From Escherichia coli (lineage in GTDB: Bacteria; Pseudomonadota; Gammaproteobacteria; Enterobacterales; Enterobacteriaceae), in assembly GCF_044647545.1 (NCBI RefSeq), contig NZ_CP172818.1: a stretch of 64,000 nt of DNA. One strand, given 5' to 3'. Within the stretch, counting starts at the first letter, position 1, and the number at the start of each line of letters is the position of its first letter. The position numbers were made by a program, and so were the translations under genes. Under the pieces are notes generated by a model, which was not told where the DNA came from, did no database searches, and worked only from the letters and a program-made list of their open reading frames with translations. Below, one piece after another: positions 2,314-52,323 of this stretch.

Positions 2314-3084
2314 CTAATTCACAAATCTGCGCGCGATTGCAGGATGTTCTTGTATATCGCCCAGCCAGATTGCCTCTACGTTGTGTTGTTGCAGCGGTTG
2401 AAGGAGCTCGCTTTGCGCAATCGCATTCTCACATTGAGAAAAACGGTTAATGAACCAGACTCGCCGACAACCTTGCGGTACGTTTTTAAACGCCCCCTGA
2501 GGGTGGCGAACCAGCGCAACGAGATCGCTCAGTTGCAAGGGTGCATCAGGTGTTAACCCAGTAATATCAGCAAACTGCGACCAGCGATGGACATTTTCTG
2601 TGCTCACTTTCGCACCCAAAATATGTCCTCCCATCACAGCAATCACGCAGCAACTGCTTTTAGGTATGCAAGGTTCGTGCTCATCAGGCGCTTTTAACGG
2701 CATTCCACGCGAGCCATCTGCTTCAATGAGAATTACGTCACACTCTGGTCGTTGTACCAGTGCATCAATCGCTTCTGGCGTAAATCCCTGCACTTTTCCC
2801 TGATTCGCTTTCCAGCTGTGAAAACAAAATGAAATGGGGGATATAAAAGACGCATGAGGAAGCATGGCGGGATCACGACAGAAAACCACGGGCCAGTGAG
2901 ATGTTGGCATAAACATATGTGTCGTCGTAGTGATTAATACACGCCTGCCGCTCGCCTGGAACAGTTCTGCCAGCCAAAAAAGCAAGCTGGTTTTCCCCCC
3001 AGCACCAACAACAGAAATCACAGTGGGACGTTTCTGCGCGCCTAAATCAATGAATAATGCCGATGGGTCAATTATACTTTTCAC
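2314..3084 (-). CDS. yqeC: selenium-dependent molybdenum hydroxylase system protein YqeC
   Basis: 256-aa ORF with P-loop-like GAGGKTS motif; length and context match YqeC. Confidence 0.9.
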   Translation of the reverse strand: MKSIIDPSALFIDLGAQKRPTVISVVGAGGKTSLLFWLAELFQASGRRVLITTTTHMFMPTSHWPVVFCRDPAMLPHASFISPISFCFHSWKANQGKVQGFTPEAIDALVQRPECDVILIEADGSRGMPLKAPDEHEPCIPKSSCCVIAVMGGHILGAKVSTENVHRWSQFADITGLTPDAPLQLSDLVALVRHPQGAFKNVPQGCRRVWFINRFSQCENAIAQSELLQPLQQHNVEAIWLGDIQEHPAIARRFVN

Positions 3085-3187
3085 GCGTCTTTATGGACCT
3101 CTCTGGGATAAATTATCCCCAACTTAATCCATCAGGAAGTAACGCAATTATCAGGCGTTATTAGCCCCTATAAATAATGGAACCACT

Positions 3188-3766
3188 ATGTCAGCCATCG
3201 ACTGTATAATTACCGCTGCCGGATTATCATCAAGAATGGGGCAATGGAAAATGATGTTACCCTGGCAACAGGGAACAATTCTTGATGCAAGTATCAAAAA
3301 TGCGTTGCAGTTTTGTAGCCGAATTATTTTAGTCACCGGCTATCGTGGTAATGAACTGCACGAACGTTATGCGAACCAGAGTAATATCACTATTATCCAC
3401 AACCCAGATTATGCGCAGGGTTTACTGACATCAGTAAAGGCCGCAGTACCCGCGGTGCAAACAGAACATTGTTTTCTCACCCACGGTGACATGCCAACCC
3501 TCACCATCGATATTTTTAGAAAAATCTGGCCGTTACGTAATGATGGCGCAATACTGCCACTCCATAATGGCATCCCCGGCCATCCGATTTTAGTGTCAAA
3601 ACCATGCCTGATGCAGGCAATCCAGCGACCCAATGTCACCAATATGCGTCAGGCACTCCTTATGGGAGAACATTATTCCGTCGAAATAGAAAATGCAGAA
3701 ATAATTTTAGATATTGATACTCCTGACGACTTTATTACAGCGAAGAAAAGGTATACTGAAATTTAG
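3188..3766 (+). CDS. mocA: molybdenum cofactor cytidylyltransferase
   Basis: 192-aa ORF matching MocA (YgfJ) in length and MobA-like N-terminal motif. Confidence 0.9.
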   Translation: MSAIDCIITAAGLSSRMGQWKMMLPWQQGTILDASIKNALQFCSRIILVTGYRGNELHERYANQSNITIIHNPDYAQGLLTSVKAAVPAVQTEHCFLTHGDMPTLTIDIFRKIWPLRNDGAILPLHNGIPGHPILVSKPCLMQAIQRPNVTNMRQALLMGEHYSVEIENAEIILDIDTPDDFITAKKRYTEI

Positions 3767-3990
3767 AAAACGTAGTTAAACGATTGCGTTCAAATATTTA
3801 ACCCCTCCTGTACTCTTTATCATAATGATAAGGAATCACTGATTTTGAGAAAAGAGAAAAAGTGATAAATGGGCTGGCAATAATAATTTTCAGGAGTGAT
3901 TTTAATTCTCATTTGGCACCTGTGAGTTCATTCACAAAAAGCCATTAAGTTTCGAGCCGCCTCACATTTTTTTATATTTCCCGCCAAACC

Positions 3991-4006
3991 TGGCAAGAGT
4001 GGTGCG
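3991..4006 (+). promoter_or_regulatory. candidate sigma-54 (-24/-12) promoter element upstream of ygfK
   Basis: TGGCA at 3991-3995 with TGC at 4003-4005, giving GG and GC at consensus spacing; about 80 bp upstream of the ygfK start; -12 region is imperfect. Confidence 0.25.
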
Positions 4007-4087
4007 ATTGTTGCTCTATCCCCCTAAACCACCGGATTTCTCAACACCGGTCACTCAATGATATCTGTATAAGCTAAGGAGAGGGTT

Positions 4088-7000
4088 ATGGGGGATATTA
4101 TGCGTCCCATTCCGTTTGAGGAACTTTTGACGCGCATATTTGATGAATACCAACAACAACGCTCAATCTTTGGTATTCCCGAGCAACAGTTTTACTCACC
4201 CGTAAAAGGTAAAACTGTTAGCGTCTTCGGTGAAACCTGTGCCACTCCCGTCGGCCCTGCCGCTGGTCCGCACACGCAGCTCGCGCAAAATATTGTCACT
4301 TCCTGGCTGACTGGCGGACGCTTCATCGAACTAAAAACCGTCCAAATTCTTGACCGCCTGGAGCTGGAAAAGCCCTGTATCGATGCCGAAGACGAGTGCT
4401 TTAACACCGAATGGTCTACCGAATTTACCCTGCTTAAAGCCTGGGATGAATACCTCAAAGCCTGGTTTGCCCTGCACCTTCTCGAAGCGATGTTCCAGCC
4501 TTCTGATTCCGGTAAATCGTTCATCTTTAATATGAGCGTCGGTTACAACCTCGAAGGTATTAAGCAACCGCCGATGCAACAGTTCATCGACAATATGATG
4601 GACGCATCTGACCATCCGAAATTCGCTCAATATCGCGATGCACTTAATAAGCTACTCCAGGATGAGGCATTTTTAGCCCGCCACGGATTGCAGGAAAAAC
4701 GCGAAAGCTTGCAAGCCTTACCCGCTCGCATCCCCACCAGCATGGTACAAGGTGTTACCCTCTCCACCATGCACGGCTGTCCTCCGCATGAAATCGAAGC
4801 CATTTGTCGCTACATGCTGGAAGAAAAAGGACTCAACACCTTTGTGAAACTTAACCCGACCTTACTGGGGTATGCGCGTGTTCGTGAGATCCTCGATGTC
4901 TGCGGTTTCGGTTACATAGGCTTAAAAGAAGAGTCATTTGATCACGACCTCAAGCTGACGCAAGCGCTGGAAATGCTGGAACGCCTGATGGTACTGGCAA
5001 AAGAAAAATCACTCGGCTTTGGCGTAAAACTGACTAACACTCTCGGCACCATCAACAATAAAGGCGCACTGCCTGGTGAAGAGATGTATATGTCAGGCCG
5101 TGCGCTGTTCCCGCTCTCCATCAATGTTGCAGCAGTTCTCTCTCGCGCCTTTGACGGCAAACTGCCCATTTCTTATTCCGGTGGTGCCAGTCAGCTGACT
5201 ATCCGCGATATTTTTGATACTGGTATTCGCCCTATTACTATGGCAACCGACCTGCTGAAACCTGGCGGCTATCTGCGCTTAAGTGCCTGCATGCGCGAGC
5301 TGGAAGGCTCCGACGCCTGGGGGCTTGACCATGTTGACGTCGAACGACTGAACAAACTGGCAGCAGACGCGTTAACCATGGAATACACTCAGAAACACTG
5401 GAAGCCAGAAGAGCGTATTGAAGTGGCAGAAGACCTGCCGCTGACCGACTGCTACGTTGCACCGTGCGTTACTGCTTGCGCCATTAAACAGGATATTCCG
5501 GAATACATCCGTCTGCTTGGCGAACACCGCTATGCCGACGCACTGGAACTCATCTACCAACGCAACGCCCTGCCCGCCATTACCGGTCATATTTGCGATC
5601 ACCAGTGCCAATACAACTGTACCCGCCTGGATTACGACAGTGCGCTGAATATCCGCGAACTGAAAAAAGTCGCGCTGGAAAAAGGTTGGAATGAATATAA
5701 GCAACGCTGGCACAAACCAGCCGGTTCTGGTTCACGCCATCCGGTTGCCGTGATTGGTGCAGGTCCGGCGGGTCTGGCAGCAGGTTACTTCCTTGCCAGA
5801 GCGGGCCATCCGGTTACGCTGTTTGAACGCGAAGCCAATGCGGGCGGCGTGGTGAAAAATATCATTCCTCAGTTCCGTATTCCTGCAGAGTTAATTCAGC
5901 ACGATATCGATTTTGTTGCCGCTCACGGCGTGAAATTTGAGTATGGCTGCTCACCCGATCTGACCGTTGAACAGTTAAAAAATCAGGGCTTCCACTATGT
6001 TCTGATTGCCACCGGCACTGATAAAAATAGCGGTGTGAAACTGGCGGGCGACAACCAAAATGTCTGGAAATCACTCCCCTTCCTGCGTGAATACAACAAG
6101 GGCACAGCGCTCAAGCTGGGCAAACATGTGGTCGTTGTCGGGGCGGGTAACACCGCAATGGACTGCGCTCGTGCGGCGTTACGCGTTCCAGGCGTAGAAA
6201 AAGCAACGGTCGTTTACCGTCGTTCACTGCAAGAGATGCCAGCATGGCGCGAAGAGTATGAAGAAGCGTTGCACGACGGCGTGGAGTTCCGTTTTCTGAA
6301 TAATCCGGAACGTTTCGATGCTGATGGCACCTTAACCTTGCGCGTTATGTCGCTTGGCGAACCTGATGAGAAAGGTCGTCGCCGTCCGGTTGAAACCAAC
6401 GAAACAGTAACGCTGCATGTAGACAGCCTGATCACCGCCATTGGTGAACAGCAGGATACTGAAGCCCTGAATGCAATGGGCGTGCCGCTGGACAAAAACG
6501 GCTGGCCAGACGTCGACCATAATGGCGAAACGCGTCTGACTGACGTCTTTATGATCGGCGACGTACAGCGCGGACCATCCTCCATTGTCGCTGCTGTCGG
6601 AACCGCGCGTCGGGCGACCGATGCAATCCTGAGTAGGGAAAATATCCGTTCCCACCAGAACGATAAATACTGGAACAACGTCAATCCGGCGGAAATCTAT
6701 CAACGTAAAGGCGATATCTCTATCACTCTGGTGAACAGTGACGATCGTGACGCGTTTGTCGCCCAGGAAGCCGCACGCTGCCTTGAATGTAACTACGTTT
6801 GCAGCAAGTGTGTGGATGTCTGCCCGAACCGCGCCAACGTCTCCATTGCGGTTCCTGGCTTCCAGAACCGTTTCCAGACGCTGCATCTCGATGCCTACTG
6901 CAACGAATGCGGCAACTGCGCCCAATTCTGCCCGTGGAACGGTAAACCGTACAAAGACAAAATCACCGTCTTCAGCCTGTCGCAAGACTTTGATAACAGC

Positions 7001-46287: not shown

Positions 46288-46518
46288 TCAGACCCCGTTG
46301 GCAAGCCGCGTGGTTAACTCATCCATAAAATATCGCGCAATGGCGGGCATCCCCTTTCGCCCGGCAAATAAAGCATACAACGGTCTGGGTATGCCGCTCC
46401 ACGGTGCAAACAGGCGCACCAGTTCACCGTTCGCAAGCCCCTGTTTACAGGCAAATTGAGGCAATAACGCCACGCCATTCAACCCAACCGGGACGCGAAC
46501 TCGCCGAGCAAAATGCAT
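46288..46518 (-). pseudogene. yqfE: LysR-family regulator remnant (C-terminal fragment only)
   Basis: 76-codon frame resembling the C-terminal co-inducer domain of a LysR regulator; no N-terminal HTH region upstream. Confidence 0.6.
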
Positions 46519-46584
46519 TAGCGCAAATCCCTGATCTTATTACACAAGTATTTAATCATTATCTTTAATATAAAAGGAGTTATT

Positions 46585-46845
46585 ATGTCTATTAAGCAAA
46601 ATTTATTTGCCGCATTATTTCTTTGCACTCTCACAGGACACGCATTTGCCGCAACCGAGATACACAAACCGGACAATAATCTTGAACAGTTATCAAAAGT
46701 GAGCATGTCCACACACAATAGCAATCCAGCGGGCGTTGAAAGCCAAATCAAAAGAGAAAGCGGAAGAGTTACAAGCCAGCAATTACTACATCAGTTCTTT
46801 CTCCGTAAAAATTATATCCACGCCACTGTAATTTTCTATAAATAG
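46585..46845 (+). CDS. hypothetical small secreted protein (86 aa, predicted signal peptide)
   Basis: ATG preceded by strong RBS AAAAGGAG; N-terminal hydrophobic stretch ending in AFA; AT-rich; no recognised homolog. Confidence 0.4.
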   Translation: MSIKQNLFAALFLCTLTGHAFAATEIHKPDNNLEQLSKVSMSTHNSNPAGVESQIKRESGRVTSQQLLHQFFLRKNYIHATVIFYK

Positions 46846-47528
46846 CCCCTCTGTTTAACGGAAGCATGGAATTATTCCATGCTCCTCTGCCAAAATGAAA
46901 TAAAAAATGAAAAAAGCTAATCTTACAGGTACGTTGGTTTGCTTTGTCGCATGCCTTATTTTTTTGTCGTCCGGTGATATTTTTCGTGAAAAGCCAATCG
47001 CTCTAATATGGTTCCTTCGACAAAACATACTCTTTTTTACGGGAACTCTTGCGTGGTGTCTGATGACGCTGACGATGTGTTTATCGTTGCGTTCATCATG
47101 GCTTAACAAAGTGCTGGGCGGTCTGGATAAAGTATGGCGAATCACATAAGTGGGCAGGAATATGCGCCATAGCGTTTGCTTTCGCCCACTGGCTGGATGA
47201 AAAATTACCCCAGTTATTCGTCGCCTTTGGCTGGCTTACTCACCCTGGTAAAATCGTTGATATTAACCTGACGCCAGTACAAGAAAATTGGCTTCATGCG
47301 GGACTGTTAGCGGGTGAATGCGCAATGTTTATTATTATAGCGATGGTTTGCGTATCTCTTAGCAAAAGAGTTCCCTATCATTTATTTCATCTTGTTCACC
47401 GTTTGTTCCCCGTCTTTTATCTGGCAATTGCCTTTCATGTGTTTACTGCTTTGTTTAAATCATACTGGTGGAACTCCTGCTGCGTATTTATTAATTTTAA
47501 TTACTATTCCGGGCGTCTTTGCGGCTTT

Positions 47529-47537
47529 CATTTCGCT
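47529..47537. repeat. IS1 target-site duplication, left copy (CATTTCGCT)
   Basis: Identical 9-mer directly flanks both IS1 ends. Confidence 0.8.
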
Positions 47538-47552
47538 GGTAATGACTCCAAC

Positions 47553-47942
47553 TTACTGATAGTGTTTTATGTTCAGATAATGCCCGATGACTTTGTCATG
47601 CAGCTCCACCGATTTTGAGAACGACAGTGACTTCCGTCCCAGCCTTGCCAGATGTTGTCTCAGATTCAGGTTATGTCGCTCAATGCGCTGAGTGTAACGC
47701 TTGCTGATTACGTGCAGCTTTCCCTTCAGGCGGGATTCATACAGCGGCCAGCCATCCGTCATCCATACCACGACCTCAAAGGCCGACAGCAGGCTCAGAA
47801 GACGCTCCAGTGTGGCCAGAGTGCGTTCACCGAAGACGTGCCACAACCGTCCTCCGTATCCTGTCATACGCGTAAAACAGCCAGCGCTGACGTGATTTAG
47901 CACCGACGTAGCCCCACTGTTCGTCCATTTCAGCGCAGACAA
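47553..47942 (-). CDS. insB: IS1 InsB-like transposase C-terminal ORF
   Basis: 129 aa ending ...[54 protein letters not shown]; overlaps the insA-like ORF in a different frame. Confidence 0.7.
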
Positions 47943-48252
47943 TCACATCACTGCCCGGCTGTATGCGCGAGGTTACCGACTGCGGCCTGAGTTTTTTAAT
48001 AAAGTGACGTAAAATCGTGTTGAGGCCAACGCCCATAATGCGGGCGGTCGCCCGGCATCCAACACCATTCATGGCCATATCAATGATTTTCTGGTGTGTA
48101 CCGGGTTGAGAAGCGGTGTAAGTGAACTGCAGTTGCCATGTTTTACGGCAGTGAGAGCAGAGATAGCGCTGATGTCCGGCAGTACTTTTACCGTTACGCA
48201 CCACGCCTTCAGTAGCTGAGCAGGAGGGACAACTGATGGAGATGGAAGCCAC
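47827..48252 (-). CDS. insA: IS1 InsA-like ORF, continuing in frame into the N-terminal part of InsB (141 aa)
   Basis: Starts [40 protein letters not shown] (InsA zinc-finger/HTH) and runs past the usual A6C slippery region. Confidence 0.7.
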
Positions 48253-48307
48253 GGGAGCACCTCAAAAACACCATCATACACTAAATCAGTAAGTTGGCAC
48301 CATTACC

Positions 48308-48316
48308 CATTTCGCT
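48308..48316. repeat. IS1 target-site duplication, right copy (CATTTCGCT)
   Basis: Identical 9-mer directly flanks both IS1 ends. Confidence 0.8.
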
Positions 48317-49082
48317 GCTGAAATTCAAACGGTAGTAAAAACAAGCATCAGGCTACCATTAAAAACATTGTTAACCATCCAGGACAAATTACCGAAGTCA
48401 CCCTGGAACTGGAACATGCCATCGACTATTCTCCGGGGCAGTTTGCATTCTTAACGTTCGCACACAGTAAAGAATCTCACCCTTTTACTATCGCTTCATA
48501 CACCAAAGAGAAGAACACGTTGCGCTTTGCCATCAAAAATTTAGGGGATTATACCTCTACCCTTGCATCCTCGATAAAAATCGGCCAGTCCGCCTTCGTT
48601 GAAGGGCCATGGGGAAAGTTTGATTTAGACTCTCCCTTGCTCCCACCAGGTCTGGATAGCAGGAGGCATCGGCATTACCCCCTTTATCGCCCAGCTTGAG
48701 TATCGTAAACATCATGGCGCGTCCTCTGTTCCTGTGGATCTCTGGTATTACGTCAGCCGAAGCGAGGATGCCTGGTATGTTGATAAACTGACCTCACTTT
48801 GTGCCCAGGCCAGGGTCACACTGCATCTGCTTGATGCGCATAAAGGTGAGCGCCTACAGGCGCACTATCTTACTGATAAAATAGCAAATAAAGGTGACAC
48901 CCATTTCTGGTTTTGCGGCCCACAGAGTTTTGCCAAAGCGCTCAGCAAAGGGTTATATGAAAATGGGATTGCCAGCCAAAACTTCCATTACGACCGTTTT
49001 TGTATGCGTTAAATGCTCTGTACCCAACGCAAAATTGTGTCATAGTGCAGGAAAAAGCATTTACCAGGAGCAGACAACAGCA

Positions 49083-50179: not shown

Positions 50180-52323
50180 ATGTCTAACGTGCAGGAGTGG
50201 CAACAGCTTGCCAACAAGGAATTGAGCCGTCGGGAGAAAACTGTCGACTCGCTGGTTCAGCAAACCGCGGAAGGGATCGCCATCAAGCCGCTGTATACCG
50301 AAGCCGATCTCGATAATCTGGAGGTGACAGGTACCCTTCCTGGTTTGCCCCCTACGTTCGTGGCCCGCGTGCCACTATGTATACCGCCCAACCGTGGACC
50401 ATCCGTCAGTATGCTGGTTTTTCAACAGCAAAAGAGTCCAACGCTTTTTATCGCCGTAACCTGGCCGCCGGGCAAAAAGGTCTTTCCGTTGCGTTTGACC
50501 TTGCCACCCACCGAGGCTACGACTCCGATAACCCGCGCGTGGCGGGCGACGTCGGCAAAGCGGGCGTTGCTATCGACACCGTGGAAGATATGAAAGTCCT
50601 GTTCGACCAGATCCCGCTGGATAAAATGTCGGTTTCGATGACCATGAATGGCGCAGTACTACCAGTACTGGCGTTTTATATTGTCGCCGCAGAAGAGCAA
50701 GGTGTTACACCCGATAAACTGACCGGCACCATTCAAAACGATATCCTCAAAGAGTATCTTTGCCGCAACACCTATATTTACCCGCCAAAACCGTCAATGC
50801 GTATTATCGCAGACATCATCGCCTGGTGTTCCGGCAACATGCCGCGATTTAATACCATCAGTATCAGCGGTTACCATATGGGTGAAGCGGGTGCCAACTG
50901 CGTGCAGCAGGTAGCATTTACGCTCGCTGATGGGATTGAGTACATCAAAGCAGCAATCTCCGCCGGGCTGAAAATTGATGACTTCGCTCCTCGCCTGTCG
51001 TTCTTCTTCGGCATTGGCATGGATCTGTTTATGAACGTCGCCATGTTGCGTGCGGCACGTTATTTATGGAGCGAAGCGGTCAGTGGATTTGGCGCACAGG
51101 ATCCGAAATCACTGGCGCTGCGTACCCACTGCCAGACCTCAGGCTGGAGCCTGACTGAACAGGATCCGTATAACAACGTTATACGCACCACCATTGAAGC
51201 ACTGGCTGCAACGCTGGGCGGTACTCAGTCACTGCATACCAACGCCTTTGATGAAGCGCTTGGTTTGCCTACCGATTTCTCAGCACGCATTGCCCGCAAT
51301 ACCCAGATCATCATTCAGGAAGAATCAGAACTCTGCCGCACCGTCGATCCACTGGCCGGATCCTATTACGTTGAATCGCTGACCGATCAAATCGTCAAAC
51401 AAGCCAGAGCCATTATCCAACAGATCGACGAAGCCGGTGGCATGGCGAAAGCGATCGAAGCAGGTCTGCCAAAACGAATGATCGAAGAGGCCTCAGCGCG
51501 CGAACAGTCGTTGATCGACCAGGGCAAGCGTGTCATCGTTGGTGTCAACAAGTACAAACTGGATCACGAAGACGAAACCGATGTACTTGAGATCGACAAC
51601 GTGATGGTGCGTAACGAGCAAATTGCTTCGCTGGAACGCATTCGCGCCACCCGTGATGATGCCGCCGTAACCGCCGCGTTGAACGCCCTGACTCACGCCG
51701 CACAGCATAACGAAAACCTGCTGGCTGCCGCTGTTAATGCCGCTCGCGTTCGCGCAACGCTTGGTGAAATTTCCGATGCACTGGAAGCGGCATTTGACCG
51801 TTATCTGGTGCCAAGCCAGTGTGTTACCGGCGTGATTGCGCAAAGCTATCATCAGTCTGAGAAATCGGCCACCGAGTTCGATGCCATTGTTGCGCAAACG
51901 GAGCAGTTCCTTGCCGACAATGGTCGTCGCCCGCGCATTCTGATCGCCAAAATGGGCCAGGATGGGCACGATCGCGGCGCGAAAGTGATCGCCAGCGCCT
52001 ATTCCGATCTCGGTTTCGACGTAGATTTAAGCCCGATGTTCTCTACACCTGAAGAGATCGCCCGCCTGGCAGTAGAAAACGACGTTCACGTAGTGGGCGC
52101 ATCTTCACTGGCTGCCGGTCATAAAACGCTGATCCCGGAACTGGTCGAAGCGCTGAAAAAATGGGGACGCGAAGATATCTGCGTGGTCGCGGGTGGCGTC
52201 ATTCCGCCGCAGGATTACGCCTTCCTGCAGGAGCGCGGCGTGGCGGCGATTTATGGTCCAGGTACGCCTATGCTCGACAGCGTGCGCGACGTACTGAATC
52301 TGATAAGCCAGCATCATGATTAA
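50180..52323 (+). pseudogene. scpA: methylmalonyl-CoA mutase ScpA (Sbm) with a 1-nt frameshift near 50348-50352
   Basis: First 57 codons in one frame (ORF 50159-50593), the rest including the conserved [22 protein letters not shown] in the -1 frame (ORF 50377-52323); span is 1 nt short of a 714-aa ORF; C-terminal B12-binding region present. Confidence 0.75.

Follow-up and report, generated by a model that had tools for sequence, protein, structure and literature searches.

IS1 is an insertion sequence of 768 bp that generates a duplication of 8-9 bp at the site where it inserts (PMC12903888). Its transposase, InsAB', is produced through a -1 frameshift at the A6C motif, while the protein InsA represses both the IS1 promoter and transposition (PMC12903888). 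The transposase acts mainly in cis, and when abundant it can move immobile copies in trans; the engineered variant IS1Efs, in which A6C is in frame, makes InsAB' constitutively and transposes up to 900-fold more (PMC12903888).

The copy analysed here lies in a 64-kb stretch of DNA, which we call the window and which was analysed as a whole. It can be compared directly with the IS1 of ECONIH1, a clinical isolate of E. coli (NZ_CP009859.1, 3398540-3399307; WP_223216367.1, 'IS1 family transposase, programmed frameshift'), with which it shares the target site, the orientation, the 9-bp duplication and both ends. The two copies differ in that the ECONIH1 element has 768 bp and normal insA and insB', whereas the window copy has gained 4 bp at A6C, lost 2 bp within insB' and carries one substitution (at 48049); their aligned bases are 99.9% identical, with 1 substitution and 6 gap columns. 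The isoforms IS1F and IS1A of K-12 MG1655 show 95.4% and 93.1% identity, respectively, to the window copy in end-to-end DNA alignment. They have the same organisation of inverted repeats, insA, A6C and insB', and the insB' part of the window copy is nearly IS1F-like, with an IRR end that matches IS1F; the isoform is nevertheless a mosaic, the insA half of which is closer to neither reference. Elements of this kind are known, and RefSeq genomes already have an annotation of the same insertion, in which PGAP gives the isoform only the generic family name.

Structure of the IS1 Copy

By every structural criterion tested, the element belongs to the IS1 family (table 1). Direct reading of 47529-48316 gives CATTTCGCT, followed by GGTAATGACTCCAACTTACTGAT ... 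ATCAGTAAGTTGGCACCATTACC and then by CATTTCGCT again, and the repeat finder likewise returns the direct repeat, as CATTTCGCT(G), on the two sides. The terminal inverted repeats of IS1 are imperfect, extend over some 23-30 bp and start with GGTRATG...CCAACTTAYTGAT; those found here conform to this pattern, having 23 nt with 20 complementary positions (87%). Exact matches to the terminal consensus GGTRATGNYNCCAACTTAYTGAT number two in the 64 kb, against 0.02 expected, and both are ends of the element. The 9-mer CATTTCGCT also occurs twice in the window, each time abutting an end of the insertion sequence, and the chance probability of nine matches out of nine at two fixed positions is about 4e-6. 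The duplication has one of the lengths expected of IS1 (8-9 bp), is perfect on both sides and is single in the empty site described below. The length of the element, 770 instead of the canonical 768 bp, is accounted for by the pair of indels of +4 and -2 bp. At the protein level, the NCBIfam profile NF033558 (transpos_IS1) scores 146.7 bits on the 141-aa open reading frame (cut-off 100) and 81.4 bits on the part that remains. NF050000, the zinc domain of IS1/IS1595, is matched as well, and the slippery motif A6C (AAAAAAC) is present at the overlap of insA and insB'. The window has no other insertion sequence. The initial annotation had described, from 47529 to 48316, an IS1 possessing its two inverted repeats and flanked by a perfect target-site duplication of 9 bp; on recount this is exact, the interval comprising precisely the element and the two duplicated 9-mers.

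Table 1. Features of the IS1 insertion and of the interrupted gene, in window coordinates
Feature	Position	Strand	Basis
5' fragment of target gene (ferric-reductase transmembrane domain)	46907..47537	+	Orthologous to ECONIH1_RS16790 and to the N-terminus of the 441-aa protein of SWHEFF_68
Left copy of target-site duplication, CATTTCGCT	47529..47537	.	9-mer single in SWHEFF_68 empty site
IS1 element, 770 bp, insA/insB'	47538..48307	-	DNA alignment and NF033558 profile
IRR, insB-proximal terminal inverted repeat, GGTAATGACTCCAACTTACTGAT	47538..47560	+	Identical to K-12 IS1F end
C-terminal remainder of insB', out of frame with upstream part	47553..47838	-	129-aa ORF 47553-47942, NF033558 positions 128-199
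141-aa ORF, in-frame fusion of insA with the first part of insB', cut off thereafter (RLR*)	47827..48252	-	NF033558 positions 1-129 of 199
Private 2-bp (GC) deletion inside insB'	47839..47840	-	Shifts frame, stop at codon 142
A6C (AAAAAAC) programmed -1 frameshift motif, retained	47991..47997	-	Alignment, translation; role per PMC12903888
Private 4-bp insertion (TATT, coding strand) directly 5' of A6C	47998..48001	-	Alignment with ECONIH1 copy
IRL, insA-proximal terminal inverted repeat, GGTAATGGTGCCAACTTACTGAT on minus strand	48285..48307	-	Repeat finder, consensus, alignment
Right copy of target-site duplication, CATTTCGCT	48308..48316	.	9-mer single in SWHEFF_68 empty site
3' fragment of target gene (FAD/NAD-binding domain)	48308..49012	+	Comparison with intact gene, Pfam

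Distribution of the Insertion among E. coli Genomes

An empty-site query was reconstructed from 600 bp on each side and one copy of the 9-mer, and was searched against 5426 complete E. coli genomes. The target region is carried by 247 of these, and uninterrupted, single-piece matches to the junction, that is, empty sites, were found at 99.3%, 97% and 94% identity. In SWHEFF_68 the site reads ...GCGGCTTTCATTTCGCTGCTGAAATT..., with one CATTTCGCT lying within an intact gene, and GCA_012977915 likewise has the empty site with the 9-mer present once; the expectation of the initial annotation, namely that relatives would have an empty site with a single 9-mer, is therefore confirmed. Using a junction-spanning query, IS1 is found at exactly this site in 30 of the 5426 genomes, and in the two filled genomes that were compared directly, ECONIH1 and FUJ80154, its position, orientation, ends and duplication are identical to those in the window.

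We consider it very probable that a single ancestral insertion of IS1 was inherited vertically, split the gene into which it had moved and left a copy that has since become defective, as the sequence stands. One IS1 would have entered, at codon ~210, a gene for a ferric-reductase/FAD/NAD oxidoreductase of 441 aa; given the biology of IS1, the InsAB' transposase would have cut CATTTCGCT with a stagger of 9 bp, and gap repair would then have duplicated those 9 bp. This single event presumably occurred in an ancestor of the E. coli clade that includes ECONIH1, MS6198 and Ecol_881 and was followed by vertical inheritance, with the window coming from a member of the clade. A different possibility is that the lineage of the window gained its IS1 independently of the ECONIH1 clade, the site being a hot spot for insertion. 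The flanks here have 62-63% A+T, and AT-rich regions are preferred by IS1; moreover, five genomes have IS1A-like sequence at the same site. However, site, orientation and 9-mer are all the same, the isoform shows 99.9% identity and near-identity of the flanks extends over 60 kb, while the IS1A-like copies retain the original ends, with their differences confined to an internal patch of 320 bp, as produced by gene conversion and not by re-insertion. An independent gain is, in our judgement, very unlikely.

The Interrupted Gene and Its Island

The gene that was split is the last of an accessory island lying between rpiA and argP, which comprises a LysR regulator, an FMN azoreductase (azoR), a DUF1471 gene and the gene in question, annotated as "ferredoxin reductase family protein" (FRD). 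Its intact form, seen in SWHEFF_68 and GCA_012977915, encodes 441 aa with the domains Ferric_reduct, FAD_binding_8 and NAD_binding_1 (PF01794, PF08022 and PF00175); it occupies positions 2970-4295 in locus L003, for which the corresponding span in the window is 46907-49012. The closest solved structures to the protein are 8qq7/8qt6 (E 1e-26), which we take to be the NOX of Streptococcus pneumoniae, and NOX5 6sz5. The product is NOX-like, its FAD/NAD domains being fused to a ferric-reductase transmembrane domain. By splitting the gene, the insertion would have inactivated it, and it documents the loss of this accessory NOX-like reductase. Additional private frameshifts are present in both fragments, at 47140 and 47472 in the 5' part and at 48326 and 48627 in the 3' part.

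In K-12 the rpiA-argP island is absent and only a yqfE remnant is kept. The remark, made in the initial annotation, that MG1655 has no IS1 at this locus is right for a stronger reason than the one offered, since the island itself is missing and with it the whole target gene.

Lineage of the Window

The window is co-linear with ECONIH1, from which its three aligned blocks hardly depart (99.985%, 100% and 99.86% identity, overall ~99.98%). Near-identity and co-linearity together indicate that the window comes from an E. coli of the ECONIH1 clade and not from Shigella. The insertion had earlier been read as a sign of Shigella or of an IS-rich E. coli, namely a Shigella-like or IS-expanded lineage with gene decay throughout the genome, and the window does contain several pseudogenes: uacT, scpA, the FRD gene and DUF1471. 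Against this stands the presence of only one insertion sequence in 64 kb, along with the near-identity to an E. coli clinical isolate and the intact state of all other genes, which are co-linear with those of ECONIH1. Thirty complete E. coli genomes have this insertion fixed, and their load of IS1 is average: chromosomes with the filled site have IS1 at 7-22 places, the E. coli median being 11. Neither the very high copy number of IS1 nor the many IS-disrupted genes that distinguish Shigella and IS-expanded lineages were found.

The two frameshifts that had been taken as signs of decay have a different meaning. That in uacT (window ~19395-20833) is a single frameshift common to the whole clade, the window being identical there to ECONIH1, in which the gene is annotated as a pseudogene. 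That in scpA, at 50348, is due to a run of C that is shorter by one nucleotide, a recurrent slip; the same truncated product of 648 aa is found in many unrelated assemblies on many backgrounds, K-12-like loci included. We regard the Shigella-like reading as extremely unlikely. The insertion is an ordinary one and a lineage marker, not a sign of decay in the style of Shigella; it can be used to mark the clade of ECONIH1-like clinical E. coli, a significance that goes little beyond bookkeeping.

State of the Transposase Frame

The initial annotation held that the element had been left unaltered since insertion. This is true of the junctions, which are pristine, but not of the interior, where the changes listed above with respect to ECONIH1 break the transposase frame. 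The 4-bp insertion beside A6C puts insB' in frame with insA. On translation, frame 0 continues from insA across A6C to insB' and meets a stop at codon 142, with the rest of insB' in another frame; the match to NF033558 splits at profile position 128/129, in agreement with the frames thus computed. Full-length InsAB' can be obtained by a single -1 frameshift at A6C in the ECONIH1 copy and not in the window copy as written, a distinction that hinges on the accuracy of the sequence. Since no single -1 slip restores full-length InsAB', the copy as written is predicted to be non-autonomous.

In the history that we favour, autonomy would have been lost after the insertion had taken place. The 4 bp added beside A6C would hard-wire the fusion of insA to insB', and the 2-bp deletion, 158 bp further on, would truncate the product at 141 aa, leaving the copy able to make only an InsA-like DNA-binding fragment. 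Having both ends intact, it could still move, though only with transposase supplied in trans by another IS1. By analogy with the experimental work on IS1 (PMC12903888), it may be considered a trans-mobilisable, repressor-producing relic. Its resemblance to IS1Efs lies in a slippery-site change that restores the frame, makes ribosomal frameshifting unnecessary and abolishes the short InsA product. In contrast with the engineered element, which is hyperactive, the window copy is truncated by its second lesion and lacks full-length transposase. No IS1 copy in the 5426 complete E. coli genomes has the 4-bp insertion, an 81-bp probe being matched over its full length at 96.3% at best, and a hypothetical full-length, in-frame InsA-InsB' fusion does not occur among 153 billion gene positions.

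Private Indels around the Element

Compared with ECONIH1, the interval 46481-48628 has 9 indel events and 5 substitutions, while the remaining ~60 kb have 2 substitutions and 5 indels, four of which are intergenic and one in scpA. Neutral decay at the level of divergence of the clade cannot yield such a density of indels around the element, because there is almost no divergence elsewhere. The cluster being private and over-dense, the lesions of the IS1 copy may be artefacts, in which case the copy would be a normal IS1 of 768 bp.

Several changes deserve to be recorded individually. The indels beyond the island lie at 606, 30359, 33008, 50348 and 59264, and include a deletion of 101 bp in the bglA|gcvP spacer and one of 7 bp in the mscS|fbaA spacer. 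Within the island, a deletion of 1346 bp with respect to ECONIH1 falls at 46480/46481 and takes away most of the LysR regulator and the azoreductase; its junction equals that of the K-12 yqfE pseudogene base for base, with ECONIH1-type bases on both sides. The breakpoints show neither microhomology nor repeats of more than 6 nt, and the K-12 yqfE junction on an ECONIH1-type background occurs in none of the other complete E. coli genomes, the best match to the junction being K-12-type (96.3%). The DUF1471 gene (YdgH/BhsA/McbA-like, 46585-46845) has gained an A at 46750 and lost a G at 46805, 55 nt apart, so that its reading frame remains of 86 aa with ~18 residues recoded. Two sources for the private changes were considered and discarded: recombination from another allele of the island, as none of the changes is shared by the groups at 99%, 97% or 94% identity, and template switching or quasi-palindromes, as the clustered changes have no direct or inverted template nearby.

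It is a serious possibility, if somewhat short of an even one, that the element is in truth a canonical IS1 of 768 bp, intact like that of ECONIH1, and that its +4/-2 lesions and the other private indels stem from assembly, consensus calling or handling of the sequence. The private changes are overwhelmingly indels, with five of them and only two substitutions beyond the island; the one substitution that was checked, in ssnA, gives the window the common E. coli allele, and hence is probably a change of ECONIH1 itself. None of the private indels is present in the 5426 complete genomes or in other alleles, and the exact products of the reading frames concerned (the 141-aa InsA-InsB' fusion, the DUF1471 variant and a yqfE-like ORF) are absent from 153 billion gene positions. 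The 1346-bp deletion would also be hard to obtain naturally, copying as it does the K-12 yqfE junction exactly, without microhomology and on an ECONIH1-type background. On the other hand, the indels are not random: beyond the island four out of five are intergenic and the fifth affects scpA, which is dispensable, whereas random errors would fall mostly in genes and sequencing error of that kind would not avoid them. Several, moreover, are not homopolymer errors, among them the 4-bp insertion and the deletions of 7 and 101 bp. The pattern may come from an artefact such as protein- or reference-guided consensus building, from an indel-biased mutator filtered by selection, or from a manipulated sequence.

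Alternatively, the lesions could be real and sequential. A 4-bp insertion at the slippery site would have produced a constitutive InsAB' fusion, with survival of host or element only after the 2-bp knockout, and the indels of the island would reflect a local, indel-biased process, for instance error-prone repair of breaks around an active insertion sequence. This we hold to be unlikely, and if the lesions are real the deletion with the exact K-12 yqfE breakpoints needs a separate explanation. The excess of private indels around the element is more likely to be a flag of data quality than biology. It bears only on the claim that the copy is defective; the finding of the IS1 and of its duplication is not touched by it.

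Later Events at the Filled Site in Relatives

Relatives display textbook after-effects of IS1, namely isoform gene conversion and adjacent deletion. The IS1 of FUJ80154 (3303-4070 of locus L002) has the original ends and 33 differences, all in one internal patch of ~320 bp that matches IS1A; same-site IS1A-like sequence is also present in 2021CK-00607, EC200461, 20AR0192 and N4220121, which with FUJ80154 make up the five genomes mentioned above. The patch looks like the outcome of gene conversion between IS1 isoforms within the genome. In DETEC-S586 (position 3233 of locus L017) the IRR end is kept exactly and the right junction is unchanged, while 820 bp leftward are gone, so that the FRD gene lacks its 5' part, DUF1471 its end and the duplication its left 9-mer. 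This is a classical IS1-adjacent deletion. The empty-site query returned partial matches resembling that of DETEC-S586 in FDAARGOS_497 and OW967966.
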